In this document: positions 4,618-39,211 of the stretch, piece after piece
Position numbering within the stretch: position 1 is the first letter of the stretch
How the letters are laid out: each line of letters opens with the position of its first letter
Assembly: GCA_963701965.1 (NCBI GenBank)
Contig: OY969695.1
Coordinates: 3,456,001-3,520,000, forward strand
Length of the DNA stretch: 64,000 bases
Origin: an uncultured Gemmatimonadales bacterium
GTDB taxonomy: Bacteria; Gemmatimonadota; Gemmatimonadetes; Gemmatimonadales; Gemmatimonadaceae
Direction: 5' to 3'
Notes under the pieces: generated by a model
What the model saw: only the letters and a program-made list of their open reading frames with translations
Databases searched by the model: none
Told to the model about the DNA's origin: nothing
Translations under genes and position numbers: made by a program

Positions 4618-5013
4618 CTACGACGCCACCGCCACCGGGACCGGCGACTCGCTCAACCCCATGGCAATCTGGCGGTTAATGTCGATCAACGGCTGCAGCG
4701 CGGCGGCCGAAGGTTTCGCGAAGACCTCGAGGGTCCGGCGATTGATGAAGCGGGTCAGCAGGATCACGTTGATCCGAACCTGCTTCGGCAGCGGGCAATC
4801 GGCCTCCTCGGCCGACGCCTGAAACACGGCCCAGAGGCGCGTGTTGTATTTGAGCGCGGCATCCAACTGGGCCGCGCGATCCGGCGCATCCCAAGCGCGC
4901 ACGACGGCCTCGATTTGTCGTGCGGACCGGAACAGCAAGAAGGCTTCCAGTTCGCGCGGGGAAGTGGCGGTGCGCTGCGCGGCGCGGTATGCGTCAGAGG
5001 CAGTCGTGGGCAT
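4618..5013 (-). CDS. flaF: Flagellin regulator/chaperone FlaF
   Basis: AYRAAQ...SPRELEA, ALKYNTRLW, PLPKQVR and LIDINRQIAMGL motifs; adjacent to flbT. Confidence 0.88.
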   Translation of the reverse strand: MPTTASDAYRAAQRTATSPRELEAFLLFRSARQIEAVVRAWDAPDRAAQLDAALKYNTRLWAVFQASAEEADCPLPKQVRINVILLTRFINRRTLEVFAKPSAAALQPLIDINRQIAMGLSESPVPVAVAS

Positions 5014-5392
5014 GGGCGAGAAGCTCGTGTTCGTAGTTGAGCAGCTCACGCGCCGTTTTGAGCGCGTGGTAGAAGCGGCCTTTGGACAAATCTTCGTTCA
5101 TTCGGGCGATGAACTTGAGCGTGCTGGGTGCGGCCTTGATGACGTCTTGCGACAGCTTGACGTAGATCTCCTGCTGTTGCGCGCGATTCCGCGGCTCGAC
5201 GTACATGAGCTGAATCGCCAGGTAGATCATCCCGCACGGGCTCGTCGCCGTCCGCGGCGTCAGGATGTCGCGCTCGCGGAGAATCGGCACCGTGTTTTCG
5301 ATGATCAACTCGGTGCGGGCGTTGCCGTTGCGGACCACGGCGCCGCCGAGGATCAGTCGTTCATTCGGTTTCAATACGAGTCGAAGCGCCAT
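4994..5392 (-). CDS. flbT: Flagellin mRNA-binding regulator FlbT
   Basis: MALRLVLKPNERLILGGAVVRNG, PILRERDIL, IYLAIQLMY, FYHALKTARELLNYE. Confidence 0.92.
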   Translation of the reverse strand: MALRLVLKPNERLILGGAVVRNGNARTELIIENTVPILRERDILTPRTATSPCGMIYLAIQLMYVEPRNRAQQQEIYVKLSQDVIKAAPSTLKFIARMNEDLSKGRFYHALKTARELLNYEHELLAHAHDCL

Positions 5393-11827: not shown

Positions 11828-12552
11828 ACGCTGGCGCTATCGTCCAGGCGCGCTTGGGCAGCACCCGCCTCCCGGGGAAAGTCCTGGCTGATCTCGGCGG
11901 CCGCCCGATCCTGGGCCGCGTGGTCGATCGGCTGCGGCTGGCGCGCGCGTTCGCCTTCGTCGGCGTGGCCACGACGACCGACGCCGGCGACGACGCCGTC
12001 GCGGCCTGGTGCGCACAGGAAAACGTGCCCTGCTTTCGGGGCCCCGTGGACGACGTGCTGCACCGATACGTCGCCGCGGCCCAGGCCTGGCGCATCGACC
12101 CGATCGTTCGCATCACGGCCGATTGTCCGTTCGTGTGCCCGCTCGCGATCGACACGTTGGTCCCGGCGCTGGTGGCCGCGAACGCCGACTATGCCGGGTA
12201 CGACGGCCCGCGGTTGGGCGAAGGCATCGATCCCTTTTCCTTGCGCGTGTTGGCGCACTTCGACGCGCTCCCGATCCCGGCGGACGAACGCGAGCACTTG
12301 GCGCTCCTGGTCCGCCGGCACCGCGAGTCGATCGCCTGCGTGTGGGTCCCGCCGGAACCGGGCCTGGAAGCCATTCCGGGCGCCCGCCTTTCGGTCGACG
12401 AGCCGGCCGACCTCGCGTTCGCGCGGGAACTGCAACGCGCCCTCCCGCGCGACTTCACGTCCTACGATCTCGCGACCCTGCTCGCCCGCCGGCCGGAGCT
12501 CGCGGACCACAATCGGCACGTGGTGCGCACCGTCCCGTCGGGGGTCCGATGA
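11824..12552 (+). CDS. pseF: SpsF/PseF-type cytidylyltransferase
   Basis: IVQARLGSTRLPGKVL, DDVLHRY, RITADCP, REH, RLSVDEPAD. Confidence 0.75.
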   Translation: MNAGAIVQARLGSTRLPGKVLADLGGRPILGRVVDRLRLARAFAFVGVATTTDAGDDAVAAWCAQENVPCFRGPVDDVLHRYVAAAQAWRIDPIVRITADCPFVCPLAIDTLVPALVAANADYAGYDGPRLGEGIDPFSLRVLAHFDALPIPADEREHLALLVRRHRESIACVWVPPEPGLEAIPGARLSVDEPADLAFARELQRALPRDFTSYDLATLLARRPELADHNRHVVRTVPSGVR

Positions 12553-13442
12553 CACACCACGGCGCGCTGCGCGACGCGGTGCAGGGGTTCGACGTCATCG
12601 ACTGCACGGAGTGCGGATTCGCGCACGTCATGCCCTTGCCGTCGCCGGCCGATCTCGCACCGGTGTACACCCATGAGTACTACGCGCGGGAAAAGCCCGA
12701 CTATCTGAGCGTCGTTCGGAAGGACCTGTCCTGGTACGAGATCGGCTACCGCGAGCGCTTCGACACGTTCGAGCAGTTCCTGCCCCCCGATCGCCGCCGC
12801 GTGCTGGATGTCGGGTGCGGCCCCGGGTTTTTTCTGGCGCACGGCGCCGGGCGCGGATGGCGCGCCATGGGCGTCGAGCCGTCGACCCAGGCGGCGGCCC
12901 ACGCCCGGAGCTTGGGCGTCGACATCGTGGAGGAGTTCTTCGACGCCCCCCTCGCCCGGCGGCTGGGGCCCGTCGACGTCGTGCAGATGACCAACGTGCT
13001 CGAACACGTGCCCGATCCGCTGGCCTTCATTGGGGCGGCGCGCGATGCCTTGCAGCCGGGCGGCCTGCTCTCGATCTGCGTCCCCAACGACTACAACCCG
13101 TTTCAGGACGCGTTGCGCAACGGCTGTGGCTTTGCGCCCTGGTGGGTCGCCCCACCACACCATCTCAACCACTTCACGTTCGACTCGCTGGCGACGGTCC
13201 TCGAGCGGACGGGGTTCGACATCGCCGAGCGGAACGCCTCGTTTCCCATCGATCTGTTCCTGCTCATGGGAGACAACTACGTCGGCGATCCGGTGCTCGG
13301 GCGCGCCTGTCACGAGAAGCGCATGCGGTTCGAGCAGACAATGGCGGGTACGGGTCACGAACATCTGCGCCGCCAGTTCTATCGCTCGCTCGCCGCGCTC
13401 GGCCTCGGGCGCGAGATCATCATGATCGCGAGGATGCAATGA
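12549..13442 (+). CDS. Class I SAM-dependent methyltransferase
   Basis: N-terminal CxxCG, VLDVGCGPGFF, GVEPS, NVLEHVPDP, VPND. Confidence 0.85.
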   Translation: MTHHGALRDAVQGFDVIDCTECGFAHVMPLPSPADLAPVYTHEYYAREKPDYLSVVRKDLSWYEIGYRERFDTFEQFLPPDRRRVLDVGCGPGFFLAHGAGRGWRAMGVEPSTQAAAHARSLGVDIVEEFFDAPLARRLGPVDVVQMTNVLEHVPDPLAFIGAARDALQPGGLLSICVPNDYNPFQDALRNGCGFAPWWVAPPHHLNHFTFDSLATVLERTGFDIAERNASFPIDLFLLMGDNYVGDPVLGRACHEKRMRFEQTMAGTGHEHLRRQFYRSLAALGLGREIIMIARMQ

Positions 13443-13454
13443 TCGCGAGGATGC
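13422..13454 (+). repeat. 17-bp-period tandem duplication at the methyltransferase/SDR junction
   Basis: ATGATCGCGAGGATGC-A-ATGATCGCGAGGATGC. Confidence 0.9.
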
Positions 13455-13458
13455 GCTG

Positions 13459-14193
13459 ATGCCGGTCGCGCTCGTCACCGGTGCAAGCCGCGGGATCGGT
13501 CGCGCCATCGCGCTGGCCCTCGGCGAGGCCGGCATGGACGTCGTGCTGACGTACGCCACGGGGCGCGAAGCGGCCGAGGCGACCGCTCGCGCGCTTCGCG
13601 CGCGCGGTCGTTCCGCCACGGTGGTCGCGTTGGACGTGGCCCGGCGGGAAAGCATCAAAGACGCAGTTGGGACGACGAAAAAAGCCCATGGGAGAATCGA
13701 CGTTCTGGTCAACAACGCCGGGATCCTGCGGCAGAAGCCGTTCGCCGAGATCAGCGACGCCGAGTTCGACGACACGATCGGCGTCAACCTGCGCGGCCCG
13801 TTCGCGCTGGCGCAGGAAGTGTTGCCCCTCATGCGCGAGCAGGGCGGGGGCGCGATCGTGAACATCGCGTCGGTCGGCGGCCAATTGGGCGGTCCCTTGG
13901 CGGTGCACTACTCGGCGAGCAAGGCAGGGGTGATCGCGCTCACGCGGTCCCTGGCCCGGCTCGGCGCCCCGACCGTGCGGGTCAATTGCGTGGCCCCGGG
14001 CCTCATCGCGACGGACATGACGCGTGACGAGCTCGCGTCTCCAGGTGTCGGAGAGAAGATGCGACAGATCCTGCTGGGCCGCGCGGGCACGCCCGAGGAG
14101 GTCGCGGGCGCGGTGGCGTTCCTCGCTTCTCCCGCCGCGGCGTACGTAACGGGACAGGTCCTCAACGTGAACGGCGGACTCTATCTTGGCTGA
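13459..14193 (+). CDS. Short-chain dehydrogenase/reductase (FabG-like)
   Basis: TGASRGIG, NNAG, YSASK, VAPG, GQVLNVNGG. Confidence 0.9.
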   Translation: MPVALVTGASRGIGRAIALALGEAGMDVVLTYATGREAAEATARALRARGRSATVVALDVARRESIKDAVGTTKKAHGRIDVLVNNAGILRQKPFAEISDAEFDDTIGVNLRGPFALAQEVLPLMREQGGGAIVNIASVGGQLGGPLAVHYSASKAGVIALTRSLARLGAPTVRVNCVAPGLIATDMTRDELASPGVGEKMRQILLGRAGTPEEVAGAVAFLASPAAAYVTGQVLNVNGGLYLG

Positions 14194-15898
14194 CACGGTA
14201 ACGATCCAAGGAGCCGGTGTCATCGCGGACGCTTTCGTCCGCCATGGCATCGCGGAGGTTTTCGTCTATCCCGGCGGCACCATCGGCCCAATCCTCGATC
14301 TCATGGAGGGTTTGGGGATCTCGGTCTTTTGCTCGCGCCACGAGCAGGGCGCGGGCTACGCCGCCCTGGCCGTGGCCCGACTGTCGGGACGGCCGCAGGT
14401 CGTGATGGTCACCTCCGGCCCGGGCGTGACGAATCTGGTGACACCGATCGCCGACGCCTATTTCGACTCCGTGCCGCTGGTCATCCTCACGGGACAGGTC
14501 GGCACCACGGACATGCGCGGCAGGCTCCCGGTCCGGCAACGCGGATTTCAGGAAGTCGACACCGTCGCGCTGCTCAAGCCGATCACGAAGGCGCAATTTC
14601 TCCCGCTGACGCCGGACGACGTCCCGGGCGCGATCGAGCGCGCGTTCGCGATCGCCGCCGACGGCCGTCCGGGCCCCGTCGTCGTCGATCTCCCAATGAA
14701 CGTGCAGCGCGGTGACTTGTCGGCCGCGCCGCTCAGCATCGTGCCCCAACTCCCGCTCACGCCCGAACCATCCGCCGTGTCGATGGCCCAAGCCGCGGCC
14801 TGGCTCTCGTGCGCCGAGCGGCCGCTCATCGTCGCCGGGCACGGGGTGCTGTTGGCGAATGCCCACGCGGCGCTGCGGCGGATCGCCGACGGTGGCCGCA
14901 TTCCCGTCACCCAGAGCCTTCTCGGTCTGGGCGCCTTCCCGACCGATCATCCCCTGGCGCTGGGCTTTCACGGCCACACGGGCAACCAGGTCGCCGGTCT
15001 GGCCATTCAGCACGCCGACGTCGTGCTCGTCGTGGGCTCTCGCCTCGACGTCCGGCAGACAGGCACGCGCCCCGATGCCTTCGCGCCGGCCGCCCGCATC
15101 ATCCGCATCGATCTCGACGAGGCCGAGCTGACCCACTCGCGCGTTGCCGCGCATTTGACGGTCCGCGCCAATGCCCACGCCGCCCTGTCGACCCTGGCCG
15201 ATCTCATCGCCCCCCGCGACTACGCCGTGCAGCGGCGCCCCTGGTTGACGCAGATCGCCGAATGGCGGCGCGAACACCGGCTGACGTATGTGACCGGCGG
15301 CCCGCTCAAGCCGCAGCGCGTGATCGAGACGCTCGACCAGTTGACCGCGGGCGAGCCCGTGATCTGCGTCTCGGGCGTGGGGTCGCATCAACAATGGACG
15401 GCCCGGCATTTCACGTTCGATTATCCCACGCGCATCTGGCTCACCTCCGGCGGCCATGGCGCCATGGGCTTTGATCTCCCCGCGGCGATCGGCGCCCAGC
15501 GCCACGCGCCGTCATCGCTCGTGGTGTGCTGCGTGGGCGACGGCTCGTTCCAGATGAACCTGCAGGAGCTGGCGACGCTCGTCGCTTACGAGCTGCCGGT
15601 CAAGGTCATCGTGCTCGATAACCACCGCCTCGGCATCGTCTCCCAGTTCCAGAAGCTCAACTGGCAGCGCGATCCGGCCTGCGGCGACAAGTGGAATCCC
15701 GACTTCGCGGCTATTGCCCGGGGATACGGGCTCATGGCCCACACCGTCGAGCACAGCGCCGACCTCGAGGCCGGTCTGCGCCGGGTCCTCGCGGTGCGCG
15801 GTCCCGCTCTGCTCCATTGTCTCGTCGATCCCAACGAAGATGTGAGTCCCATGCTCCTCGGCGGGCAGACGCTCGACCAGATGTGGACCCGTGCGTAA
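14186..15898 (+). CDS. ThDP-dependent acetolactate synthase-like enzyme
   Basis: YPGG, RHEQGA, TSGPGVTN, FQE, GAMGF and GDGSFQMN...DN ThDP motif. Confidence 0.88.
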   Translation: MADTVTIQGAGVIADAFVRHGIAEVFVYPGGTIGPILDLMEGLGISVFCSRHEQGAGYAALAVARLSGRPQVVMVTSGPGVTNLVTPIADAYFDSVPLVILTGQVGTTDMRGRLPVRQRGFQEVDTVALLKPITKAQFLPLTPDDVPGAIERAFAIAADGRPGPVVVDLPMNVQRGDLSAAPLSIVPQLPLTPEPSAVSMAQAAAWLSCAERPLIVAGHGVLLANAHAALRRIADGGRIPVTQSLLGLGAFPTDHPLALGFHGHTGNQVAGLAIQHADVVLVVGSRLDVRQTGTRPDAFAPAARIIRIDLDEAELTHSRVAAHLTVRANAHAALSTLADLIAPRDYAVQRRPWLTQIAEWRREHRLTYVTGGPLKPQRVIETLDQLTAGEPVICVSGVGSHQQWTARHFTFDYPTRIWLTSGGHGAMGFDLPAAIGAQRHAPSSLVVCCVGDGSFQMNLQELATLVAYELPVKVIVLDNHRLGIVSQFQKLNWQRDPACGDKWNPDFAAIARGYGLMAHTVEHSADLEAGLRRVLAVRGPALLHCLVDPNEDVSPMLLGGQTLDQMWTRA

Positions 15899-17126
15899 GA
15901 CGGTCCTGATCGTGAGCGGCGGCGCCGAGGCCGTGCCCGGCATCCGCCGCGCGCGCGAGCTTGGGTTGCACGTGGTCGTCGCCGACCACGATCCCGCGGC
16001 ACCGGGCATGGCGCTGGCCGACGATCAACTGGTCATCAGCACGTATGACGCTCGAGGGATGGCGGAGGCGGCAGCGCGTTTCGCGCGCGCCGTACGGCGC
16101 ATCGACGGTGTGCTGTCCATCGCCGCCAATGTGCCGCTGACCGTCGCGACGGTCGCCGAGCGGCTGGGGCTCCCGGGGCCCTCGATCGAGACGGCAAGGC
16201 TGGCATCCGATAAGCTGGCTATGAAAGAGCGCTTTGCGTCCGCCGGGGTGCCCATTCCGTGGTACCAGGCAGTCGAGAGCGCGACGGCGCTCGCGGCAAT
16301 CGCGCGTCAGCGAGGGTTGCCATTGGTGATCAAGCCGGTCGACAGCCGGGGAGCGCGCGGCGTGCTGCGGTTGACGCCAGCGGTCGACTTGGGCTGGGCT
16401 TTCGATCATTCCCGGTCGGCATCGCCGACGGGCCGGGTGATGGTCGAGGAATACCTGCCAGGTCCGCAGTACAGCACGGAGTCCGTGCTCCTCGCGTCGG
16501 GCGCCTGGATGCCCGGACTGGCCGAACGCAACTACGAGCGCCTCGAGCGCTTCGCGCCGTTCATCATCGAAGACGGCGGTCAACAGCCACCGGATCTGTC
16601 GCCGGTCGACCGGCAGGCGCTCGCCGATCTTACCGAGGCCGCGGGGCGGGCCCTGGGCGTGACGCAGGGCATCGTCAAAGGCGATCTCGTCATCACACCG
16701 GATGGCCCGCGCGTCATCGAAGTCGCCGTCCGACTCTCGGGCGGATGGTTCTCCACGGATCAGGTCCCGCTGGCCACGGGCGTCGATCTCGTCGGGGCCG
16801 CGATCAAAATGGCCGTGGGCGAGCCGCTCGATCCCGCGACGCTCGTGCCCCAACGCCGCCAGGGCGTGGCGATCCGCTACTTCTTTCCGCGGGCGGGACG
16901 GGTCGAGTCGATCGAGGATGAGGGCCGCTTCCGGAACGTGCCGGGGATCAACCGGATCGGGTTCTTCGTCCGCGCCGGCGACCGGATCGGGACGCCGACC
17001 AACCACACGCAGCGCGCCGGATTCGTCATCGCCACGGGCGCCACGTGCGCCGAGGCGGTCGGCCGCGCCGAATCGGTGGCCCGCGACATTCGCATCGCGA
17101 CGGTCGAGACCGGAGCCGACGCGTGA
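15891..17126 (+). CDS. ATP-grasp ligase (L-amino acid ligase-like)
   Basis: DKLAMKE, VIKPVDSRGARGV, VEEYLPGPQYSTE, IEVAVRLSGG. Confidence 0.82.
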   Translation: MRKTVLIVSGGAEAVPGIRRARELGLHVVVADHDPAAPGMALADDQLVISTYDARGMAEAAARFARAVRRIDGVLSIAANVPLTVATVAERLGLPGPSIETARLASDKLAMKERFASAGVPIPWYQAVESATALAAIARQRGLPLVIKPVDSRGARGVLRLTPAVDLGWAFDHSRSASPTGRVMVEEYLPGPQYSTESVLLASGAWMPGLAERNYERLERFAPFIIEDGGQQPPDLSPVDRQALADLTEAAGRALGVTQGIVKGDLVITPDGPRVIEVAVRLSGGWFSTDQVPLATGVDLVGAAIKMAVGEPLDPATLVPQRRQGVAIRYFFPRAGRVESIEDEGRFRNVPGINRIGFFVRAGDRIGTPTNHTQRAGFVIATGATCAEAVGRAESVARDIRIATVETGADA

Positions 17127-19081
17127 CGCTGCACTGCTTCGCCGTCTTTCACCTCAATCTCGCGTTCTCGTCCATCGAGGAAGAACAGCGTCCGACGGTG
17201 ATGGACCGGTGCTACTGGCCGCTGCTCGATCTCGTGCGCCAGCATCGCGTCCCGATCGGGATCGAGGCGCCCGGCTCCACGTTGGAGATGGCCGAGGCGA
17301 TCGATCCGGAGTGGGTCAATGTGCTGCGCGCCCTGGTGCGGAATGGGCAGGTCGAGTTCATCGGCAGCGGATATGCGCAGCTCATCGGACCGCTGGTACC
17401 GGCCGACGTGGTGCGCGCCAACCTGCGCCTTGGGCACGCCGTGTACGAACGATTGCTCGGCGTCCGTCCGACGGTCGCCCTGGTGCACGAGCAGGCCTGG
17501 TCGGCCTCGCTGGTCTCGCATTACCGCGACGCCGGATACGGCGCCGTCATCATGGAGTGGGAGAATCCTCGCGCGACGCACGAGGAGTGGCCGGCCGAAT
17601 GGCGCTACCATCCCCAGCGCGCGCTCGGGACCGACGGCGCATCGATTCCGGTGCTGTGGAATCACTCCATCGCGTTCCAGAAGCTGCAGCGCTACGCCCA
17701 CGGCGAGATCGAGACCGAGGAGTATCTCGAGTATCTGCGCGGCCACTATGGCGCCGGCGATCGGGTACTGGCGATCTACGGCAGCGACGCCGAGGTGTTC
17801 GACTACCGGCCGGGCCGCTATCGCACCGAGGCCGCGCTGAGCGCGCTGGGCGAGTGGCAGCGGTTGAACGCCCTCTTCACTGTGCTGGGCGCCGAGCCCG
17901 GTCTGGCGCCGATCACGCCGAGCGCGGCGCTCGGGCTGATCAATGGTCCGGATGCCGGCCATGATGTGCGGCTGGAAACCGCCCGGCACCCGGTACCGGT
18001 CAAGAAGCAGCCCAAGTATGACCTCGCGCGCTGGGCCGTCACGGGTCGCGATGATCTCGGCATCAACACGGCGTGTTGGCGTATCGCCGAGGCGCTGATC
18101 GCCCGCGGTGGGGACGACAGCGAGTGGCGGGAGTTGTGCTATCTGTGGAGCAGCGACTTTCGCACGCATATCACGGCGTCCCGTTGGGACGCCTATATCG
18201 CGCGTCTCGCTGCGCTCGACGCGCGTCATCGTCGGCCCAGGGTACTCCGGTCGGCGCAGCCGTTGCCGGCCGAGGTCACCGTGCGCCGCGAAGGCCGGTA
18301 CCTGACCGTCGACACTGAAACCGTTGGCGTGCGGCTCAACTGCCGGCGCGGCCTGGCCATCGACGCGCTGACGTTTCCCCATCTCTCGCCGCTGGCGCTG
18401 TGCGGCAGTGTGCCGCACGGCTACTTCGACCGCATCGATTGGAGCGCCGACCAGTACACGGGGTTTCTGGTCCTCGCGGCCGCCGGTCAACACCAGGTCA
18501 CGGATCTCGAGCCGGCCGAGCCCGTGGTGACGTGGGATGAGGCGACCGACCGCGTCATCGTGAGCGCGTGTGTCGGGACGCCGTTGGGCCGGATCGAAAA
18601 GACAATCGCGGTGGGCCGTGCCGACGCGCGGGTGGAAGTGCGCTACCGGCTCGACTGGCCGGAGATTCCGCTGGGGACACTGCGGCTGGGGCACGTCACG
18701 CTCATCCCGACGTCATTCGATGCCGGCTCTCTGTTCTATGCGACGCACAACGGCGGCACGACGCTGGAGCGCTTCGCGCTCGACGGCGAAGTCGATCATG
18801 TGCAGCCCGTGTCCCACCTCGTCTCGTGTCGAGGGGGCGTGGGTGCGACCGGCGGTGTCATCCTACTGGGTGACGCTCAGAGGGCCGTTCAGATAGAGAT
18901 CGACCGGCAGGCGGCGGCGTTGTTTCCCCTGATCACGATGCATCGCATCGGCGACCGCTATCTGTGCCGGGTGACGCTCTCGGCCCGGGAGTTGGATGAC
19001 ACCAGCCGACTGGGCCGGAGTCGTTTCGTCGACGAGCTGGCCTTCGCGATCTCAGGCCGCGAGCGCGCGGCGGCCCTCTAA
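17123..19081 (+). CDS. GH57/NodB-superfamily (beta/alpha)7 protein, putative sugar deacetylase/hydrolase
   Basis: FHLN...CYWPLL, VEFIGSGYAQLIGPL, YGSDAEVFD motifs; C-terminal beta-rich domain. Confidence 0.55.
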   Translation: MTLHCFAVFHLNLAFSSIEEEQRPTVMDRCYWPLLDLVRQHRVPIGIEAPGSTLEMAEAIDPEWVNVLRALVRNGQVEFIGSGYAQLIGPLVPADVVRANLRLGHAVYERLLGVRPTVALVHEQAWSASLVSHYRDAGYGAVIMEWENPRATHEEWPAEWRYHPQRALGTDGASIPVLWNHSIAFQKLQRYAHGEIETEEYLEYLRGHYGAGDRVLAIYGSDAEVFDYRPGRYRTEAALSALGEWQRLNALFTVLGAEPGLAPITPSAALGLINGPDAGHDVRLETARHPVPVKKQPKYDLARWAVTGRDDLGINTACWRIAEALIARGGDDSEWRELCYLWSSDFRTHITASRWDAYIARLAALDARHRRPRVLRSAQPLPAEVTVRREGRYLTVDTETVGVRLNCRRGLAIDALTFPHLSPLALCGSVPHGYFDRIDWSADQYTGFLVLAAAGQHQVTDLEPAEPVVTWDEATDRVIVSACVGTPLGRIEKTIAVGRADARVEVRYRLDWPEIPLGTLRLGHVTLIPTSFDAGSLFYATHNGGTTLERFALDGEVDHVQPVSHLVSCRGGVGATGGVILLGDAQRAVQIEIDRQAAALFPLITMHRIGDRYLCRVTLSARELDDTSRLGRSRFVDELAFAISGRERAAAL

Positions 19082-20027
19082 CCACTCCGCGAACCGCGCC
19101 AGTCCCGCGGTCAGCGTCGTGGCCGGCCGGTAGCCCAGGAGTCGCCCGGCTTTCTCAATGTTGGCCCAAGTCGCGGGGACATCGCCGGGTTGCATCGGCA
19201 GATGTTCGATCGCGGCCGGGCGTCCGAGGGCGTCCTCGATCCCGGTCAGGAGCTCCCGCATCGAGACCGGCTGGTCGTTCCCCAGGTTCATGATCTCGAA
19301 CGGGGTCGCCCGATAGTCGAGCGCCGCCCGAATGCCGGCGACAATGTCATCGACGTACGTGTAGTCGCGCATGGTGGCGCCGTCGCCGAACACCGGCAGG
19401 CGCTCACCGCGCAGGACCTTCGACGCGAACCGGTGAATCGCCAGATCCGGCCGCTGGCGCGGGCCGTAGACCGTGAAGAGGCGGAGCGCCAGGAATCGCA
19501 TGCCGTGCCGCGCGGCGTACTCCCGTCCCAGGTCCTCGCCCAACAGCTTCGTGAGCGCGTATGGGCTGATGGGCTGCAATGCCGCATCCTCGTTCCACGG
19601 CGTATGCGGATTCACGCCATAGACACTGCTCGACGATGCGAAGACGAACTGGGGGATGCCCCGCTCGCGCGCCAGCTCCAGCAGATTGTAGGTGCCGTTC
19701 ACGTTGACATCGTGATACAGCGCCGGGTGTTCGAGCGACGGACGGACCCCGGCCCGCGCCGCCAGAATGCACCACGGCGTCGTAGTCGCCGCGGAGCCGC
19801 GCCCGCAGGGTGGGGAGCGTCCGGATGTCCGACTGGACGAGCGTGTAGCCGCGATAGGCCCCGTGTCGCGCCACCTGCTGGCGCTTGAACGCCGGCGGAG
19901 AGAAGTCGTTGAAGTCGTCGACGACCGTGACGCGCCATCCCTCGGCCAGCAGCGCGTCGGTCACGTGGCTGCCGATGAATCCCGCGCCGCCGGTGACGAG
20001 TGCGTGCCGCGTCATGTGAGAGCTCAT
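19052..20027 (-). CDS. NAD-dependent epimerase (UDP-glucuronate 4-epimerase-like) with apparent +1 frameshift near 19766
   Basis: TGGAGFIGSH...DAVVH in one frame joins LAARAGVRPSL...ASSSSVYG, PYALTK and TVYGPRQRPDLA in the next. Confidence 0.8.
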
Positions 20028-21421
20028 GTGAGGGCCGCCAGCTCGCCGGCGACGCGCGTCAAGAGCGCGCTCCAGTCATGGCGGGGCTCGGCGCCCATGA
20101 TGCGCATCGTCGGATACCACGGCCGCCGCCCGGTGTTGAACGACGTCCAGTCACCCTGGGGGCTCGGCAGGAGCCGCCACGCCGGCACGCCGAGGGCGCC
20201 GCTCAGCTCCCCGACGGCGTTGCCGACGGTGATGACCAGGTCCAGGTTCGCGATCAACGCCGCCATGCCGTCGAAGTCATCGCGCCGGTCGAGATCCGGG
20301 AACTCGTGAATGTGGACGCCGAACCGGTCCCGCGCGGTCGCCAGAGCGAGCGAGCAGTCGTCGTACTGCAGGTTGATGAACTGCGCGCCGGGCGTCTGCA
20401 GCACCGGACCCCACCGGTCGAGCGTCGAGTAGGAACGGGCCCGCTCGGCGGTCATGAGCCCGCTGCGCCAGCTGATCCCCACCTTGAGCCCGGGGCCGAG
20501 CGCGGCGACGCGCGCGTGCCACTGCCGCACGCGCTCCGCGTCGGGAACGAGATACCCTGAGTGCGTGGGGAAGCTCTCGACCGTGGGCCTAAGCCAACGC
20601 GGCAGATCACCGATCGCCGACTGGTAGTCCGCCGCGAGCGGTTCGGCGGGCGGTTCGACCCGGGCCGAGTTGATGACGTCGGCCTGGGGGAACGATCGGG
20701 TAAAGAGCGAGACGAGTCGCGACGTGCAGGCGAACGTCACTTTGCCGGCGCGGGCGATGAGATCGGGCAGGCAGTTGGCGAACATGATCTCGTCTCCCAC
20801 GCCCTGCTCGCGCCACACCAACACGTGCTGGCCCGTGATGTCCTCGCCCGACCACTGCGGGTAGGGGAGTGGATAGCGCCACTTCGCGTACCGCGTATGT
20901 TGCCAGCGGTAGGCGTAGCCTTCCCAGCCCGCCTGGAGATCGCCCGCGCACAACTCGTGGAGGGCCAGATCCCAACGCGCTTCGTTCTGCTCAGGCTTGA
21001 GCGCGACATAGCGCCGTCCGGCCGCGACGCGCTCGTCGAGCAACTCCAGGTCGTCCGTGATCCTCCACAGCGCCGACGCCGCATCCACCGAGTCCGGCGC
21101 GTAGCGCACGGCGTCCCGGAAAAATTCCCGGGCCGCCGGCAAATCGCCCGCCATGGCGCGCAACTGCCCCAGTGCGAGATGCGCGCCGGATAACGTGCGA
21201 TCCAGCGCGAGGGCGCGCCGGAGCGAAGCGACGGCGTCGTCGTGTTGGTTGAGGCTCGCCAGCGCGAGTCCCAGCGCCAGGTGACCTGCCGCGAGCCGCG
21301 GCGTCTCCGCCAGCCCGCGCCGGTAGGCGACGACCGCGGCATCCAGGTTCCCGGACCGGTGCAGTTCCGCGGCCGATTCCAGCGAGCGAACGGCGCGCTG
21401 GATCTTGGCGGTGGCCGTCAC
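20024..21421 (-). CDS. Second TPR plus GT-B glycosyltransferase
   Basis: TPRs, then VWREQGVGDEIMFA, GISWRSG and INLQY; paralog of 5598-7814. GTG start overlaps the upstream stop. Confidence 0.75.
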   Translation of the reverse strand: MTATAKIQRAVRSLESAAELHRSGNLDAAVVAYRRGLAETPRLAAGHLALGLALASLNQHDDAVASLRRALALDRTLSGAHLALGQLRAMAGDLPAAREFFRDAVRYAPDSVDAASALWRITDDLELLDERVAAGRRYVALKPEQNEARWDLALHELCAGDLQAGWEGYAYRWQHTRYAKWRYPLPYPQWSGEDITGQHVLVWREQGVGDEIMFANCLPDLIARAGKVTFACTSRLVSLFTRSFPQADVINSARVEPPAEPLAADYQSAIGDLPRWLRPTVESFPTHSGYLVPDAERVRQWHARVAALGPGLKVGISWRSGLMTAERARSYSTLDRWGPVLQTPGAQFINLQYDDCSLALATARDRFGVHIHEFPDLDRRDDFDGMAALIANLDLVITVGNAVGELSGALGVPAWRLLPSPQGDWTSFNTGRRPWYPTMRIMGAEPRHDWSALLTRVAGELAALT

Positions 21422-21927
21422 GCGTGCACCGGCGCCGCGACCACTTCCAGCGTCGGATCCAGTGCGATGGCCCGTGCGCGGCAGCGGGCCGCCTCCGTCG
21501 GATCTCCCCCAATCTCGCACAGGTGCGCGAGGTTGAGCCATGCCAGCGCGTTCGTGGGATCGATCTCGATCGCGGTCGTGTAGCAGCGTGCCGCGTCGGC
21601 CGGGCGTCCCAGGGCGACCATGACCCGTCCCAGATTGCTATGGTACGCCGGGACCCGGTGTTGGCGCGCGATCGCTTGGCCGATCCAGTCGGCGGCCAGG
21701 GCGTGTTGCCCCAGCTGGCTGGCGGCGACCCCGGCCAAATGCATGGCACCGGGGTCGCTTTCGTCGACAGCCAGTCCCCTCATGTACAACACTGCTGCCT
21801 CTATGTACCGCCCCGCGACGTGGTGCGCGTAGCCGTCCCGAATGTATGTCCGGACCCGAGCGGCATCCGAGGCGGAGAGCGCTGGTGAAGCGTCCCAGTC
21901 CCGCATCGGGGCGAAGTCGAACATCAT
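21418..21927 (-). CDS. Small TPR-only protein
   Basis: About four TPR repeats (AMHLAGV, YHSNLGRV, AWLNLA). Confidence 0.7.
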   Translation of the reverse strand: MMFDFAPMRDWDASPALSASDAARVRTYIRDGYAHHVAGRYIEAAVLYMRGLAVDESDPGAMHLAGVAASQLGQHALAADWIGQAIARQHRVPAYHSNLGRVMVALGRPADAARCYTTAIEIDPTNALAWLNLAHLCEIGGDPTEAARCRARAIALDPTLEVVAAPVHA

Positions 21928-21985: not shown

Positions 21986-22855
21986 TCAGAGACCAAAAAG
22001 ATGGAGGACGCTCGCGTTCGCCTGACTAGCCAAGCTCAGAGACTCGATACCGAGGCTCTGGCGAGTCTGGAGGGCCAACATGTTCGCGCCTTCCTGGTTC
22101 GGATCGGCCAGGGTGAGGTTATCCGCGCCCTGGTTCAGGGTGTTGACCGTGCTCGACGCGAACTGCTGACGGATCGTGACCACGCCGAGGTTCGCGGCGA
22201 GGGTCTGCGTCTGCGTCTGGAGGCTGGACAGCGCCGAGGTCAACTGGTTCGCGTGCGTGTCGAGGATGTTCTGGAAGCTCGCATTGCCCCAGCTGTGGGC
22301 GCCGGTCGCACCTGCCGACACGATACCCAGACCGGTGGCCGTCGACGCCGCGAAGGTCGTGCGCCCGCCGGCCAGCGCCGAGAAGCCTTGCAGCTTCAGC
22401 GAGCTGGTGTTGTTCTCGTTGAACACGACGGTCAACGACTGGTTCTCGAGCAGGTTGATGCCCTTGTAGTTGGCATCGGCGACTGCCTGGTTCACCTGCG
22501 TGCGAAGCGTGTTGAACTGCGTCTGCAGCGTGTCGCGGCCGGCCGTCGTCGCCGAGCGGGCCGACTGAATGACACCTTGCATCTGCTGGATCAGGGCCGT
22601 GATCGCGGTGATGCCGTTCTGGGCCTGCGTCACCGTCTGCACCGCCTCACCCATGTCGTTCTGCAGACCCTGGAGGTCGTTGGCGCGGTTCCGCTCCGAC
22701 GACGCCGTGAAGAACGAGCTCGGATCGTCGATCGCGCTGTTGACCTTGAACCCAGTGGCCAGATCGTTCTGGGTCTTGTTCATCTGCGTGGTCGTGTTCT
22801 GGAGGCTGAGCAGGTTCTGCTGCATCGAGGCCGACAGAACGATATTCGTCGACAT
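21986..22855 (-). CDS. fliC: Flagellin (289 aa, alpha/Desulfobacterota type)
   Basis: LSASMQQNLLSLQ...LATGFKVNSAIDDPSSFF and LTLADPNQEGANMLALQTRQSL...SLSLASQANASVL. Confidence 0.93.
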   Translation of the reverse strand: MSTNIVLSASMQQNLLSLQNTTTQMNKTQNDLATGFKVNSAIDDPSSFFTASSERNRANDLQGLQNDMGEAVQTVTQAQNGITAITALIQQMQGVIQSARSATTAGRDTLQTQFNTLRTQVNQAVADANYKGINLLENQSLTVVFNENNTSSLKLQGFSALAGGRTTFAASTATGLGIVSAGATGAHSWGNASFQNILDTHANQLTSALSSLQTQTQTLAANLGVVTIRQQFASSTVNTLNQGADNLTLADPNQEGANMLALQTRQSLGIESLSLASQANASVLHLFGL

Positions 22856-22867
22856 ACTGTGTGTGCT

Positions 22868-22921
22868 CCCATTCTGGGTTGACTGTCGCCGGGTTCTTCC
22901 GGCGGGGTCCCGATTCTCGGG
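22868..22921 (-). promoter_or_regulatory. Structured flagellin 5'UTR with three AGAAY-loop hairpins
   Basis: mRNA sense: CCCG-AGAAT-CGGG, CGCCGG-AAGAAC-CCGGCG, CCC-AGAAT-GGG. The last overlaps the GGGAG SD. Confidence 0.6.
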
Positions 22922-22933
22922 GCCTGTAGTTCA

Positions 22934-22962
22934 GTATCGGCCGGCACCGCCGCCGAGTTGAG
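22934..22962 (-). promoter_or_regulatory. sigma28 promoter for flagellin
   Basis: CTCAAC-N15-GCCGATAC. Confidence 0.85.
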
Positions 22963-22977
22963 GATGTGCTGCACCGA

Positions 22978-23006
22978 CTCAAGTCTGGACACCGCGCCGC
23001 CGATAC
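22978..23006 (+). promoter_or_regulatory. sigma28 promoter for the divergent unknown gene
   Basis: CTCAAG-N15-GCCGATAC, 8 nt before ATG 23015. Confidence 0.85.
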
Positions 23007-23014
23007 TGGACAGC

Positions 23015-23749
23015 ATGTCCGTCAGTGTCCTGACTTCCACGATCCAGAACACGTTTGGTGAGACGCGCACCGATGCGCAGTACATCGGGGATCTCAACAA
23101 CCGTCAAACGTATCGGATCGACTTGACCGGGTCGCTCGTCCCGCGCGATAAGGGCGACTACTACAAGTTCCGCGTCACGGCGAACAACACGAACATTCGG
23201 TTGTTCTCATTCGAGCAGACGGCGGGCAGCGGGACCACTGCCGCCAACAGCTCCAGCACGCCGCAGGGCACGGCCGCCAATCCGCTGGACACCGGCAACC
23301 TCACGTCCCTCGTCGACCAGGGACAGTTGCGGTACCAGTTGTATACCCAGACGGGCAAGCTGGTGGCCGATAGCAGCCCGGGGTCGGGGAACCTGTTCCA
23401 TGCCTATCAGAACCTCACCAGCTCGACGAATATGCAGCTGTCGACGGGCACCTACACGATCAAGGTCTCGCCGGGGCCGAACGCGAACCCGCACACCACG
23501 TACGAGTACCTCTTCACGCTGCGGGGCGACGGTTCGCCGATCACCGATACCAGCACCAATGCCACGCGCCGCGCGTTCGACACCACGGCGACGGCCGCTA
23601 GCAACAAGGACACGACGGTGACGCTCGGCAGTGCCGGGAATGCCACCATCCTGAGCACGAATGCGGGTGTGTCGGAGAGCCTGTTCACCACTCTGCAGAA
23701 CAGCGCCAGCGGCCAGACCAGCGGGTCGACGATCAACCTGCTGGCGTAG
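23015..23749 (+). CDS. Unknown Ser/Thr-rich protein with PPC-like beta-sandwich motifs, candidate flagellar export substrate
   Basis: DKGDYYKFRV...YQLY...GTYTIKVS pattern, no signal peptide, C-terminal GSTINLLA, own sigma28 promoter. Confidence 0.7.
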   Translation: MSVSVLTSTIQNTFGETRTDAQYIGDLNNRQTYRIDLTGSLVPRDKGDYYKFRVTANNTNIRLFSFEQTAGSGTTAANSSSTPQGTAANPLDTGNLTSLVDQGQLRYQLYTQTGKLVADSSPGSGNLFHAYQNLTSSTNMQLSTGTYTIKVSPGPNANPHTTYEYLFTLRGDGSPITDTSTNATRRAFDTTATAASNKDTTVTLGSAGNATILSTNAGVSESLFTTLQNSASGQTSGSTINLLA

Positions 23750-23750
23750 G

Positions 23751-24908
23751 CTAGGCTGTCGGTCCCAAATAGTTCGCCAACGAGAGACCGAGCACGCGGC
23801 TGGTCGCTTCGTACGCCGCGCTCAGCGCCGTCTGCGCGGTCAGGAGCTGCGTCGCCACCTGCGCCGTATTGATATTCTCGATATTCCCCTGCTGGGTGCT
23901 CAGGCTCGCCGCCTGGGTCGACTGCGTGCTGGCCGTGTTCTGCATCGTCTGCAGTGTCACGCCGGTCTCACTCTGGAGCCCCAGCACCTGCGTCTGCGTG
24001 CTCTCCAGCTGCGTGGTGGCCGAGGAGATCGTGTCGCTGGTCCCGGTCTGGAGCGCCTGCAGGGTCCCCTGGAGGGCGGCGATCGTGTTGCCGAAGATCT
24101 GGTCGCCGGTATGGTTCGTCGACACGGTCTGGCCGCTGCCAATGAGCGCTTGCGGGCGGTTCGTATCGCCCTGATAGGACAGGCCGGATGCGACGGCGAT
24201 CGTTTGCTTGTTGAGCGCCGCGACCGTGAACCCGGTGCCCGCCGCGATGGTGACGCCGAGGGTGCTGAAATTGAGCGCCGTCGTGCCGTTGGTCACGCCC
24301 GTGATCGTCTGCGACTGCGTCGGATCGCTCTGATTCGTCAGTGTGACGTCGCCGGCGCCGTCGGTGGTCAATTCGTAGACACCGGCTTCCGCGCCACTGC
24401 CCACAGTGACCGCACCGTCGGTCGCGCTGAGACTCGTGCCAACGAGTCCCGCCGTGCCAGGGGGCGTGGCCTGCATCGGCGGCTGGTCGGTCTTCAAGCC
24501 TCCAAAGACGTAGTTGGAGCCCACCTGCGTATTCGCCAGGTCGACGACCTGTTGCAGCAAGTCGTTGATCTCGGTGATCGCCGAGGTCCGGGTGGAGTCC
24601 CCGGGCTGCGAGTTGGCCGCGCTGGCCGCGCTCGACTGCGCCGAGGCCAGCATCTGGTTCACCGCCGTCTCCACCGAATCCTCGGTATCGAGATTCGTCT
24701 GGACGACAGCCTGATTCTGCTGGTACTGGGTGATCGCCGCCTGATTGAACGAGATGTTTATGACCTGACCCGTTCCCTGTGGGTCATCCGACGGCTGATT
24801 GAGCTTACGCTGCGTCGCCAACTCCCCGGCAAGTTGCTGGAGCTGGCTGTCCTGCGTCATTATGCCGTTGACCAGCGTTTGGTACCGGCTGAGGTCTGAA
24901 ATTCCCAT
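23751..24908 (-). CDS. flgL: Hook-filament junction protein FlgL
   Basis: ATQRKLNQPSDDP, LANTQVGSNYVFGG, ALSAAYEATSRVLGLSLANYL. Start moved to ATG 24908, just after the promoter. Confidence 0.88.
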   Translation of the reverse strand: MGISDLSRYQTLVNGIMTQDSQLQQLAGELATQRKLNQPSDDPQGTGQVINISFNQAAITQYQQNQAVVQTNLDTEDSVETAVNQMLASAQSSAASAANSQPGDSTRTSAITEINDLLQQVVDLANTQVGSNYVFGGLKTDQPPMQATPPGTAGLVGTSLSATDGAVTVGSGAEAGVYELTTDGAGDVTLTNQSDPTQSQTITGVTNGTTALNFSTLGVTIAAGTGFTVAALNKQTIAVASGLSYQGDTNRPQALIGSGQTVSTNHTGDQIFGNTIAALQGTLQALQTGTSDTISSATTQLESTQTQVLGLQSETGVTLQTMQNTASTQSTQAASLSTQQGNIENINTAQVATQLLTAQTALSAAYEATSRVLGLSLANYLGPTA

Positions 24909-24915
24909 ATCGTTG

Positions 24916-24943
24916 GTATCGGCAGCTCGGCGAAAAAGTTTAG
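24916..24943 (-). promoter_or_regulatory. sigma28 promoter for flgL
   Basis: CTAAAC-N14-GCCGATAC (TAAA-N15-GCCGATAC), 7 nt before the ATG. Confidence 0.8.
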
Positions 24944-27880: not shown

Positions 27881-29377
27881 GTGGCTACGCTCGTTCCGGC
27901 GGACCTTCTCGCCCAGACTCGTGCCTTTGGCGCGGCCAACCGCCGATTCGCGGCGCTCGGCCTCATCATCGGCGGCCTCGCCGTCCTGTGGGTCGCCAGC
28001 AAGTGGATGACGGGGCCGACCTACGTGACGCTGTACCACGACATCGAGCTGTCCGCGATGAGCGGCATGACGGAGAGCTTGACCAAGGGCGGCATCGCGT
28101 ACCGCTTGGAGAGCGGCGGCAGCGAGATCCTGGTGCCCGTGCAGGACGTGGCCCGCGCCCGCGTGCTCTTGGCCAAAGACGGCATGCCCATGTCGGGCCG
28201 GCCGGGCATGGAGCTCTTCGACAAGCCGACGTGGGGCATGACCGACTTCACGCAGCGGGTCACCTATCGGCGCGCGCTCGAGGGCGAGCTGTCCCGCACC
28301 ATCGGTTCATTGGAGGGGGTCCAGCGCGCCGAAGTCCACCTGGCGTTGCCGGAGGACAGTCCGCTCCGCCGGCTCAATCGCCCGGCCGAGGCGGCCGTCG
28401 TCGTGAGCCTCAGGCCGGGTGGGATGCTCACGCCCGGAGTCGTCCAGGGCATCTCTTATATAGTCTCGAACAGCGTGGAAGGCCTGCCCGCGCAAAACGT
28501 CGCGGTCATCGACGCCGCCGGCCGCCTCTTGTCGTCACCCGTCGACACCGGGACATCCGGGCTGTCGTCGCGGCAGCTCGACATGCAGCGCGCCACCGAG
28601 AAGGAACTGGGCGACAAGATCAATGGGCTGGTGGCGACGGTACTGGGCCCGGGGCATAGCCGCGTGCAGATCGCGGCCAAGATGGACTTCGACCAGACCG
28701 AGCGCACCACCGAGACGTACGATCCCGACGGGCAGGTGCTCAATACCGAGCAACGCAGCGAAGCCACGGGTGACCAGACCGAGGCGGGTAGCGGCAACCA
28801 GACCGTCATCAGCAACACGTACGCGAACACCAAGAAGGTCGAGCGCACCATCGGCTCGACGGGCACGATCAACAAGCTGACCGTCGCCGTCTTCGTCGAC
28901 GAAAAGGCGCTCGCCAAGAGCGCGGCGACGCCGGCCAAGGCCGACTCGACGCTCAAGAGCTTCAATGCCGCGATCCGGAATGCGATCGGACTCGACACCG
29001 CGCGGGGCGATCGCCTGACCTTGGCGACCATGCCGTTCGAGATCGACCCGCTGGCGATCACGAAACTCCCGGCCGATTCGGCGCCCAAGCGCGACGTGCT
29101 GGTCGTGGTCGAGCGCTTCAGCCGCCCGGTCATCATGCTCATCGGTATCGCGCTCGCGTTCGTGCTGGCGCTCAAGCTGATGGCGGCGGCGCCCGGATCG
29201 CCGGGGTCCGCGCCCGGCGCGCTGGCATCGGGATCCGCCGAGCTGGCCACGCCCGTCGCGCCGATCGTCATGGCTGACGCCACGCACCGGCTCAAGGCTG
29301 GCGTGCGCAACCACATGTCCGAGGAGCCGGCCCAGGCCGCACAGGTCGTCCGGGCCTGGATCGGGGAATCGCGCTGA
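27881..29377 (+). CDS. fliF: MS-ring protein FliF
   Basis: GMELFDK, YRRALEGELSRTI, AEVHLALPE; two TM segments. Confidence 0.93.
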   Translation: MATLVPADLLAQTRAFGAANRRFAALGLIIGGLAVLWVASKWMTGPTYVTLYHDIELSAMSGMTESLTKGGIAYRLESGGSEILVPVQDVARARVLLAKDGMPMSGRPGMELFDKPTWGMTDFTQRVTYRRALEGELSRTIGSLEGVQRAEVHLALPEDSPLRRLNRPAEAAVVVSLRPGGMLTPGVVQGISYIVSNSVEGLPAQNVAVIDAAGRLLSSPVDTGTSGLSSRQLDMQRATEKELGDKINGLVATVLGPGHSRVQIAAKMDFDQTERTTETYDPDGQVLNTEQRSEATGDQTEAGSGNQTVISNTYANTKKVERTIGSTGTINKLTVAVFVDEKALAKSAATPAKADSTLKSFNAAIRNAIGLDTARGDRLTLATMPFEIDPLAITKLPADSAPKRDVLVVVERFSRPVIMLIGIALAFVLALKLMAAAPGSPGSAPGALASGSAELATPVAPIVMADATHRLKAGVRNHMSEEPAQAAQVVRAWIGESR

Positions 29378-30403
29378 TGGCGCTCCAGTTTCCGCGGCAG
29401 GAGGCGGAGCTGACGGGCGTCCAGAAGGCGGCCGTCCTCATGATCGCGGTTGGCAAGGACAAGAGCGCCGCGATCCTCCAGCATCTGACACCCGAGGAAG
29501 TCGAGGCCATCTCGAAAGAGATCGCCGCCCTCCGGACGGTGAAGGCCGACGTCGTCAATGCGGTACTCAACGAGTACCAGGGCGTCGCCCGCGCCGTGCA
29601 GTCGTTCGCGACCGGCGGCCCGGAGGTCGCGCAGGAGATCCTGGAGGCCGCCGTGGGATCGGATCGCGCCAAGGTCATCTTCGTGCGCATTCGCGAGGCG
29701 CTGGTGCCGACCGCGCTTGGCAAGCTCAAAAAGGCGCCGCCGGACATGCTCTTGAGCGTTCTCCGCGGCGAGCACCCGCAAACGTTGGCGCTCATCCTCG
29801 CCCACCTGGACAGCGCGCAAGCGGCCCTCGTCATCGAGCTCATGGAGCCGGTGTTGGCGGGCGAGGTGCTGTACCGAATGGCCTCGATGGACAAAGTCTC
29901 GCCGGACATGCTGGCGCTGGTCGAAGATGGCCTGCGGTCGAAAACCGACCTGACGCTGACGCAGGAGATGACGCTGTCGGGCGGACCCAAGGCGGTCGCC
30001 CAGAATGCTCAACTTCGCGCCGCCGTCGATCGAGCAGGCGTTGATCGCCAGCATCGGCGAGCGCGATGAGGCGCTGGCCACGCAGATCAAAGATCTCATG
30101 TTCGTGTTCGAGGACCTGGTCCTGCTCGACGGGCGGTCGATGCAGCGCGTCCTCCGCGATGTCGACGGCAAGGAGCTGGCGGTGGCGCTCAAAGTCGCCA
30201 GCGAAGCGCTCAAACAGCACATCTACCAGAACATGTCGGAACGCGCCGCGGCGGCGCTCAAGGAGGAGTTGGAGTACCTGGGCGCCGTCAAGGTCAAGGA
30301 TGTCGAGGCGGCGCACATGAACATCGTGCAGCGCGTGCGCGCGCTGCAGGAGACGAACGAGATCACGATCTCGGGACGGGGCGGCGGCAATGTCATCCTT
30401 TAA
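29377..30403 (+). CDS. fliG: C-ring protein FliG with apparent +1 frameshift near 30004
   Basis: LTGVQKAAVL, EHPQTLALIL, GGPKAVAQ, then MLN...MFVFEDL, LAVALK and NMSERAA in the next frame. Confidence 0.9.
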
Positions 30404-38860: not shown

Positions 38861-39211
38861 ATGAACTACCCCAATTCCGATCAGAACAGCGATCCGGCGT
38901 TCGACCAAATCGATGTCGCGCCGCTGGCCGAGCTGGGCGCGTCGGCGGGCAACGGCGGCGTGCAGACGCTCGACGCGCTGCTCGACGTCAACCTGCCGGT
39001 CACGATCGAGTTCGGGCGGACCGCCATGGTCGTGCAAGAGGTGCTGGGCTTGGGACCAGGATCGGTGATCCAGCTGAGCCGCATGGTCGGCGAGCCGGTC
39101 GACGTCTATGTCGCCGACCGCAAGTTCGCCGAGGGCGAAGTCGTGGTCGTCGGCGAGCACTTCGGCGTCCGTATCATCCGCATTCTTCCCGCTAGCGATC
39201 AACAGGCTTGA
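38861..39211 (+). CDS. fliN: FliN (in frame with the FliM C-terminus)
   Basis: GAGGA RBS before ATG 38861; LLDVNLPVTIEFGRT, GEVVVVGEHFGVRI. Confidence 0.88.
   Translation: MNYPNSDQNSDPAFDQIDVAPLAELGASAGNGGVQTLDALLDVNLPVTIEFGRTAMVVQEVLGLGPGSVIQLSRMVGEPVDVYVADRKFAEGEVVVVGEHFGVRIIRILPASDQQA

Follow-up and report, generated by a model that had tools for sequence, protein, structure and literature searches.

Repeated A(G/A)AAN hairpins in the flagellin leader of a Gemmatimonadales bacterium, a probable multi-site FlbT operator

The window, namely the whole stretch of 64,000 nucleotides that was analysed, is a flagellar gene cluster and contains the only flagellin gene that we found in this genome. 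The named relatives of this flagellin are alphaproteobacterial, with 35-56% identity in the best segment. Among 40 near relatives of the host, the same flagellin type was found in none, and weak matches were present in three. The features discussed here are as follows, with the basis of each assignment in brackets.

4618..5013, minus strand: flaF, 131 aa, overlapping the end of flbT (FlaF, E 4e-27; above the NCBIfam cut-off)
4994..5392, minus strand: flbT, 132 aa (Pfam FlbT above cut-off, E 4.9e-39; below the NCBIfam equivalog cut-off)
21986..22855, minus strand: flagellin, 289 aa, of the FlbT-associated (alphaproteobacterial-type) clade
22856..22927, minus strand: flagellin 5' leader, about 72 nt, with three hairpins (sequence and predicted fold)
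22866..22870, minus strand: Shine-Dalgarno sequence GGGAG, 10 nt before the AUG (sequence)
22868..22878, minus strand: hairpin 3 (H3), CCC-AGAAU-GGG, the 3' arm being part of the Shine-Dalgarno sequence (fold, alignment)
22887..22904, minus strand: hairpin 2 (H2), six G-C pairs and a 6-nt loop AAGAAC, the conserved upstream site (fold, alignment)
22909..22921, minus strand: hairpin 1 (H1), AGAAU loop, the least conserved of the three (fold)
22935..22961, minus strand: sigma28-type promoter pattern (TCAA, 16 nt, GCCGATA; pattern scan)
47288-48058: fliA, the sigma28 gene within the window

The flaF gene adjoins flbT in the window as in the loci examined elsewhere. Neither csrA nor fliW was found in this 95% complete genome, and searches of it for fliS, fliD and a paralogue of FljJ also found none. 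Within the host phylum, 76 of 301 genomes have a flagellin-family match over the cut-off, and six carry flbT, namely this genome and five of one genus of the same order (g75). None of these six has csrA, against 65 of the 70 other flagellated genomes. Moreover, fliW was not found in any of the five flbT-positive genomes searched for it, and fliS and fliD were not found in three of three flbT-positive genomes but were found in both flbT-negative controls. Because flbT and flaF are present, csrA, fliW, fliS and fliD were not found and the kin carry csrA, the host appears to use the FlbT type of filament module in place of the CsrA type of its kin. We also considered a separate acquisition by this genome and by g75; the flagellin tree sets the two apart, and the FlbT tree places both close.

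Several other genes of the cluster deserve mention. Between flbT and flagellin (5598-21927) lie genes with TPR plus a C-terminal domain (5598-7814, 20024-21541 and 21418-21927) and sugar biosynthesis-like genes; the TPR itself was found by search, and together we take these genes to resemble FlmG-type flagellin glycosylation genes. Four genes are each split over two overlapping frames (29377-30403, 35887-37151, 37852-39211 and 19052-20027) and are presumably fliG, flgE, fliM and a nucleotide-sugar epimerase. The split frames of these flagellar genes appear to be either assembly indels or real decay.

The sigma28-type pattern ends at 22935, 8 nt from the leader, and places the predicted transcription start at about 22927 (22928-22926). 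The same arrangement occurs in the closest metagenomic relative (L063, flagellin 71% identical) and in relatives of the same order (L028-L032). An earlier sequence-only reading of this DNA had named a start downstream of the hairpins as evidence against itself; the promoter pattern lies 5' of all three. It had also remarked that several other sigma28 genes here are nearly leaderless. This holds by pattern, since two of the five further sigma28-type patterns in the window have an AUG within 9 nt (8 and 9 nt past the -10 box) and a third leader is about 14 nt. One of these genes is the flgL-like gene at 23751-24917 (minus strand), which has its own pattern and lies apart from flgK at 53240; its AUG follows the -10 box by 8 nt and it is therefore likely leaderless. 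Another is a divergent gene at 23015-23749 (plus strand; own pattern at 22979-23005), which is nearly leaderless and encodes 244 aa from that AUG. It has no Pfam or NCBIfam match, and we guess that it may be a FlaY-like cap substitute, because fliD was not found. A further pattern precedes a short unannotated ORF and a 104-aa ORF at 4603-4058 (minus strand); the latter has no Pfam match and could, as a guess, be FlgM-like.

Folded from 22927 to 22856, the leader forms three stems with a predicted energy of -25.6 kcal/mol, and the minimum free energy structure equals the centroid. It is more stable than most shuffles (z = -3.1; 2 of 200 dinucleotide shuffles were equally stable). The sequence-only reading had described three stems, each presenting AGAA(U/C), with the third pairing the GGG of GGGAG. 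Both points were reproduced on the minus strand, directly 5' of the flagellin ORF, where the 3' arm of H3 supplies the GGG of the Shine-Dalgarno sequence at 22870..22866. We dropped the plus-strand fold of these coordinates, as the flagellin is transcribed from the other strand, and a reading of the element as a terminator or sigma70 promoter was rejected as none is present. In the energy model an A-U pair closes H1 and H3 and leaves a GAA triloop. Relatives carry C, A or G at this position, and what is conserved is therefore an AGAAN loop of 5 nt. H3 alone is weak (-2.8 kcal/mol), and opening GGGAG in the predicted ensemble of the leader costs about 5 kcal/mol. The loops are spaced 20 nt apart from H1 to H2 and 22 nt from H2 to H3.

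Such an array is rare in this genome. Three AGAAY hairpins within 60 nt occur at two places across 5.1 Mb, and when 5,018 crude ORF leaders were scanned, three A(G/A)AAN hairpins turned up in the flagellin leader alone. It is also the only clear match of the genome to a covariance model of H2 and H3, with the leader itself being part of the training set. The leader element has no match among the 4,227 families of Rfam 15; at E<=5 the search gave CcsR1 alone, on the opposite strand, with 13.3 bits against a cut-off of 65.3. A small share of one soil metatranscriptome run gave three short contigs, none covering the leader. Only one other leader in the genome (G000:C1:698461, minus strand; L292:2393-2962) has an AGAA-type Shine-Dalgarno hairpin, in single copy. 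It precedes a 189-aa gene that we assume to be SRPBCC-like, and the gene ahead of it is presumably ArsR-like.

We then compared flagellin leaders among relatives. In L063, H2 and H3 are kept, and the stem of H1 is present by eye with a different loop; the H3 loop ends in C there, hence the modelled A-U pair is not conserved. All five g75 leaders share the sigma28 pattern. Each has a long stem that carries an AGAAN loop and, at the Shine-Dalgarno sequence, a hairpin whose loop reads AG(A/G)AN; their stems are unlike those of the window. When pentaloops were counted without bias in 121 leaders from the clade of this flagellin, the result was AGAAU 35, AGAAA 35, AGAAG 24, AGGAA 9 and AGAAC 5, where 0.2-0.6 of each were expected, which is an enrichment of about 100-fold over shuffles. 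With at most one additional base tolerated at either side of the loop, at least two A(G/A)AAN hairpins are present in four of five g75 leaders, in 45 of 98 metagenomic leaders (0.7 in shuffles) and in 22 of 87 leaders from flbT-positive Alphaproteobacteria, against none of 28 from flbT-negative Alphaproteobacteria. None of 40 leaders from flbT-negative members of the host phylum has two; nor has any of 18 leaders in L001-L017, where the loops are AGUAY or AGGAA. At least three hairpins occur in 11/98 metagenomic and 7/87 flbT-positive alphaproteobacterial leaders, so two is the usual number. The unit of three hairpins stated by the sequence-only reading thus stands for the window leader, while the conserved core comprises H2 and H3, the H1 loop being different in L063. 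Likewise, the loop AGAAY is correct for this leader, and the consensus is wider (AGAAN, and AAAAY in Caulobacter-like leaders). Spacing between sites in relatives is 21-27 nt in 43 of 49 cases.

Some leaders deviate in an orderly way. Loci L003, L004, L006, L011, L013 and L014, and L002, L005, L007 and L016, have FlbT-type leaders whose upstream loops are AGUAC/AGUAU or AGGAA, suggesting lineage-specific loop codes. In tandem flagellin pairs (L115-L118, L123, L127-L130 and L134), the first gene is without a multi-hairpin leader and the second has one with two or three hairpins, echoing the split between regulatory and structural flagellins.

The stems vary and yet pair. We dereplicated the FlbT-type leaders to 186 and took 118 AGAA sites near the Shine-Dalgarno sequence, unselected for pairing. 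The first three flanking positions pair in 94, 99 and 90 of them, against 80, 82 and 62 after column shuffling (reached in 0 of 2000 shuffles). For 136 upstream AGAA sites the excess of pairing is weaker and clearest at positions 2-4. In an alignment of H2 and H3 from 18 sequences, 81.6% of cells pair and 19 cells change on both sides; the H3 helix is 94% paired, with the closing pair being U-A in 8, C-G in 4 and U-G in 4. Covariation is 0.288, compared with 0.145 when shuffled and at most 0.099 with slid partners, a figure that is supportive and is not a probability, because the 18 sequences are related and hand-chosen. The covariation check proposed by the sequence-only reading therefore came out in its favour: the stems differ and covary around conserved loops. 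For H2 we also tried a register with a 6-nt loop and rejected it, since it fits the alignment worse than the 5-nt one (covariation 0.172, 14 of 500 shuffles), even though H2 of the window itself has 6 nt. Searching 828 kb of alphaproteobacterial DNA with the covariance model gave 14 held-out matches at E<=5, and 10 of these, including the top five, have their end no more than 12 nt from a flagellin start. The five g75 genomes belong to the training set, and in them nothing but the flagellin leader matches clearly.

The loop type follows the regulator gene. CsrA-type ANGGAN hairpins are present in 32 of the 40 flbT-negative leaders of the host phylum and in none of 209 FlbT-type leaders. Of 70 fetched loci, these 40 controls passed the start and score filters; the 12 loci of family f10 and most of genus g35 were dropped. 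For Alphaproteobacteria we sampled 161 genomes, with flbT in 62 and a flagellin-family match in 105, and obtained leaders from 45 flbT-positive and 25 flbT-negative genomes. A strict A(G/A)AAN pentaloop hairpin was found in 26 of 45 flbT-positive against 2 of 25 flbT-negative genomes, and at least two in 14 of 45 against none of 25; the sampling differs between the two sets, the former leaders being mostly from near flbT and the latter those of the best-scoring flagellin. No strict hairpin is present in 19 of the 45 flbT-positive genomes. The csrA gene, in turn, was found in 1 of 33 flbT-positive and 20 of 25 flbT-negative alphaproteobacterial genomes searched. Since the motif, flbT, flaF and the flagellin clade are inherited together, these genome counts represent few independent events and cannot by themselves name the binding protein. 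As judged from these comparisons, structure and loops are conserved in flbT-positive genomes and rare in flbT-negative ones, the motif being neither universal nor separable from the flagellin clade.

A hairpin over the Shine-Dalgarno sequence is not specific to flbT, because such a hairpin, with an A(A/U)GUA loop, is present in 11 of 28 flbT-negative alphaproteobacterial leaders. Their bearers include L193, L194, L196, L204, L207, L208, L210 (with three tandem copies) and L211, and most of them have csrA. The AGAA just 5' of GGAG may also be partly favoured as the purine-rich context of a ribosome site. GC-rich 5' stems protect mRNA. The hairpins might accordingly need no protein and simply stabilise the 5' end of a very abundant mRNA while damping its initiation by a fixed amount, which would suit both this protective role and the occurrence of Shine-Dalgarno hairpins without flbT. 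We consider this very unlikely, as the loops are conserved while the stems vary freely, loop identity switches with the regulator gene, and paralogues that are likely FljJ-like (see below) are without the motif. Decayed CsrA sites or chance folds in GC-rich DNA are extremely improbable and already largely excluded. AGAAN is indeed one base from the CsrA-type AGGAN loop, and AGGAN is present in 13 of 190 FlbT-type leaders (0/5, 4/98 and 6/87, plus cases in L001-L017), but csrA was not found in this 95% complete genome, and neither the roughly 100-fold enrichment over shuffles nor the uniqueness of the leader in its genome suits chance.

The best known FlbT system is that of Caulobacter. Control of its flagellin mRNAs by FlbT, FljJ and FlaF was reportedly described by Anderson and Gober in 2000 and by Ardissone et al. 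in 2020. In C. crescentus these proteins act via the 5' UTR (PMC3930126, PMC4347634, PMC7591256), and reviews state that FlbT binds flagellin 5' UTRs (PMC3930126, PMC4347634). We analyzed 30 loci of an order whose flagellins resemble Caulobacter FljK-N (310-330 bits). At least one hairpin is present in 43 of 58 leaders and at least two in 26, with shuffle expectations of 6.8 and 0.4, and the loops are mostly AAAAU and AAAAC. In loci L313-L320, by our own count based on an N-terminal signature, all eight FljK-like genes have two hairpins and nine of ten divergent paralogues have none. One divergent paralogue scored 219-237 bits against solved Caulobacter flagellins, while its neighbour scored 312-329. 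From these sequences we infer that the divergent paralogues are FljJ-like. The lack of hairpins is as expected if so, and it fits the report that FlbT-FljJ represses five other flagellin transcripts in Caulobacter (PMC7591256).

The window resembles the Caulobacter system in having flbT and flaF, a structured flagellin leader and no csrA, fliW, fliS or fliD that we could find, and in the A(G/A)AAN hairpins, related forms of which occur in relatives, in leaders of flagellins close to Caulobacter FljK-N. It differs in several respects: the promoter is of sigma28 type here and RpoN-dependent there; a single flagellin is present, with no FljJ paralogue found; the Shine-Dalgarno sequence is overlapped by one hairpin, whereas in many Caulobacter-like leaders the hairpins stay 5' of it; and the host lies outside Alphaproteobacteria, in a phylum with flbT in 6 of 301 genomes.

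We further focused on the FlbT protein. In an AlphaFold2 model (101 sequences, pLDDT 95.5), residues 3-39 form five short strands (3-7, 12-15, 18-21, 27-31 and 37-39), and a four-helix bundle follows. Leu3 is conserved in 99 of 101 sequences and Arg39 in 97 of 101. Residues 1-45 agree with the CsrA-family pattern, that is, five beta-strands and then a helix, with Leu in strand 1 and Arg in strand 5. Comparison of the FlbT profile with a 16-sequence CsrA profile gave E 1.2e-4, and hhalign of the N-terminus gave a probability of 82 and a pairwise E of 1.1e-5; the score of 26.7 exceeds that of each of 100 column shuffles (16.0 at most) and of the reversed profile (12.2). Arg39 aligns with Arg44 of CsrA, which together with Leu4 is described as critical for RNA binding (PMC7652899). 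When 97 FlbT N-termini were searched against 24,736 Pfam models, CsrA was the top non-self family, with weak matches in 14 of 97 at E<=1 (best E 0.01), and Sm_like came next with 12 of 97.

Structure searches brought no confirmation of this. The full-length model matched only generic four-helix bundles in the fold search (best Z 9.1, rmsd 1.8, 74 aligned) and nothing in Foldseek, and the N-terminal model reached Z 3.4 at best with no CsrA chain listed. A PDB sequence search with FlbT profiles gave no CsrA, an Atlas search with residues 1-48 gave no usable match, and we found no relative of FlbT among solved structures. CsrA forms a strand-swapped dimer, and comparing it with a model of the monomer may not be valid. 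As these searches with monomer models listed no CsrA, homology of the FlbT N-terminus to CsrA is likely from the profiles and short of established. The available text of PMC4894983 calls FlaF/FlbT "analogous", not homologous, to the CsrA system. For the bundle of residues 50-132, FliS chaperones are among the matches (Z 7.1-7.2), not above background.

The leader itself is laid out like CsrA/RsmA operators, which are described as short stem-loops that recur about every 20-25 nt, have purine-rich loops and include one at the Shine-Dalgarno sequence (PMC7652899, PMC4894983, PMC8306008). The spacing in relatives, mostly 21-27 nt, is within the 10-63 nt that CsrA dimers are reported to bridge (PMC7652899). 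It also recalls the CsrA-FliW-flagellin switch of Bacillus and Campylobacter, as the target is a flagellin mRNA and the N-terminus of the regulator aligns with CsrA. It nevertheless does not fit a CsrA operator: the loops are A(G/A)AAN with no GGA, the window leader has no ANGGAN or AGGAN hairpin, neither csrA nor fliW was found in the 95% complete genome, and FlbT has an additional four-helix bundle.

We conclude that the leader is probably a multi-site FlbT operator that works as CsrA operators do but uses another loop code. The sequence, the predicted fold, the covariation of stems and the co-occurrence with flbT and flaF in place of csrA are observed here. The hairpins are likely FlbT sites because the design recurs with flbT and is replaced by CsrA-type GGA hairpins without it. 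The FlbT operator proposed by the sequence-only reading has gained conserved loops, covarying stems, a distribution that tracks flbT and CsrA hairpins where csrA is present; binding by FlbT itself we infer. The loops could also be protein sites read by FlaF, by flagellin itself or by a factor coupling translation to export, given that flaF adjoins flbT in the window and the loci examined and that the motif tracks the flagellin clade no less closely than flbT. Such a reader is unlikely, for the CsrA-like, arginine-bearing domain sits in FlbT, which is the reported 5' UTR binder, while FlaF is described as a secretion chaperone (PMC3930126, PMC7591256).

Under the operator reading, the CsrA-like N-terminus of FlbT would recognise the A(G/A)AAN loops. 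The stable H2 upstream would serve as its docking point, H1 being held in reserve, and from there FlbT would span about 22 nt to reach the weak H3. In this way it would clamp the Shine-Dalgarno sequence closed and repress flagellin translation until the flagellum can export flagellin. Stems usually gain stability when a protein binds their loop. If control runs as in Caulobacter, flagellin that has not been secreted would be the co-repressor, and export with the help of FlaF would lift the block and couple release to hook completion (PMC7591256, PMC3930126). Because no FljJ paralogue was found, the single flagellin must serve as co-repressor in this scheme.

The sign of control might instead be positive, with FlbT opening H3 or shielding the mRNA, so that flagellin synthesis needs FlbT. 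FlbT is described as an activator in Brucella, and the direction of its control differs between species (PMC4347634, PMC8781033); moreover, the naked leader is predicted to partly hide the Shine-Dalgarno sequence, and the first codons fold too. Activation is nonetheless quite improbable here, as loop binding would stabilise the H3 stem that holds the Shine-Dalgarno sequence, the module replaces a CsrA repressor module in the host phylum, and FlbT of Caulobacter represses (PMC7591256).

A broader picture, to which we give slightly less than an even chance, goes beyond the operator. FlbT would be a divergent CsrA-family protein whose loop code changed from GGA to A(G/A)AA and whose four-helix bundle senses unsecreted flagellin in place of FliW, with the A(G/A)AAN array as its operator, so far uncatalogued and spread over several lineages besides Alphaproteobacteria. 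In this picture bacteria would exchange CsrA and FlbT versions of the complete filament module (flagellin, leader code, regulator, chaperone and cap), as would have happened here with the native sigma28 promoter kept.

The action of FlbT on flagellin leaders has been known since 2000, and the available text of a 2015 review left its binding motif blank and its mechanism unresolved (PMC4347634). Our literature search found no account of the A(G/A)AAN motif or of FlbT-CsrA homology, while hairpins of Caulobacter or Bradyrhizobium may be described in Anderson and Gober 2000, Mangan 1999, Mongiardini 2017 or Ardissone 2020. The present analysis provides a concrete candidate for the FlbT site, predictions at the level of residues (Arg39, Lys8 and Leu3) and a natural swap control against CsrA, and the question of the FlbT site thereby becomes testable. 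If the link to CsrA is true, both known checkpoints of flagellin translation would share one ancestral RNA-binding domain with two loop codes.
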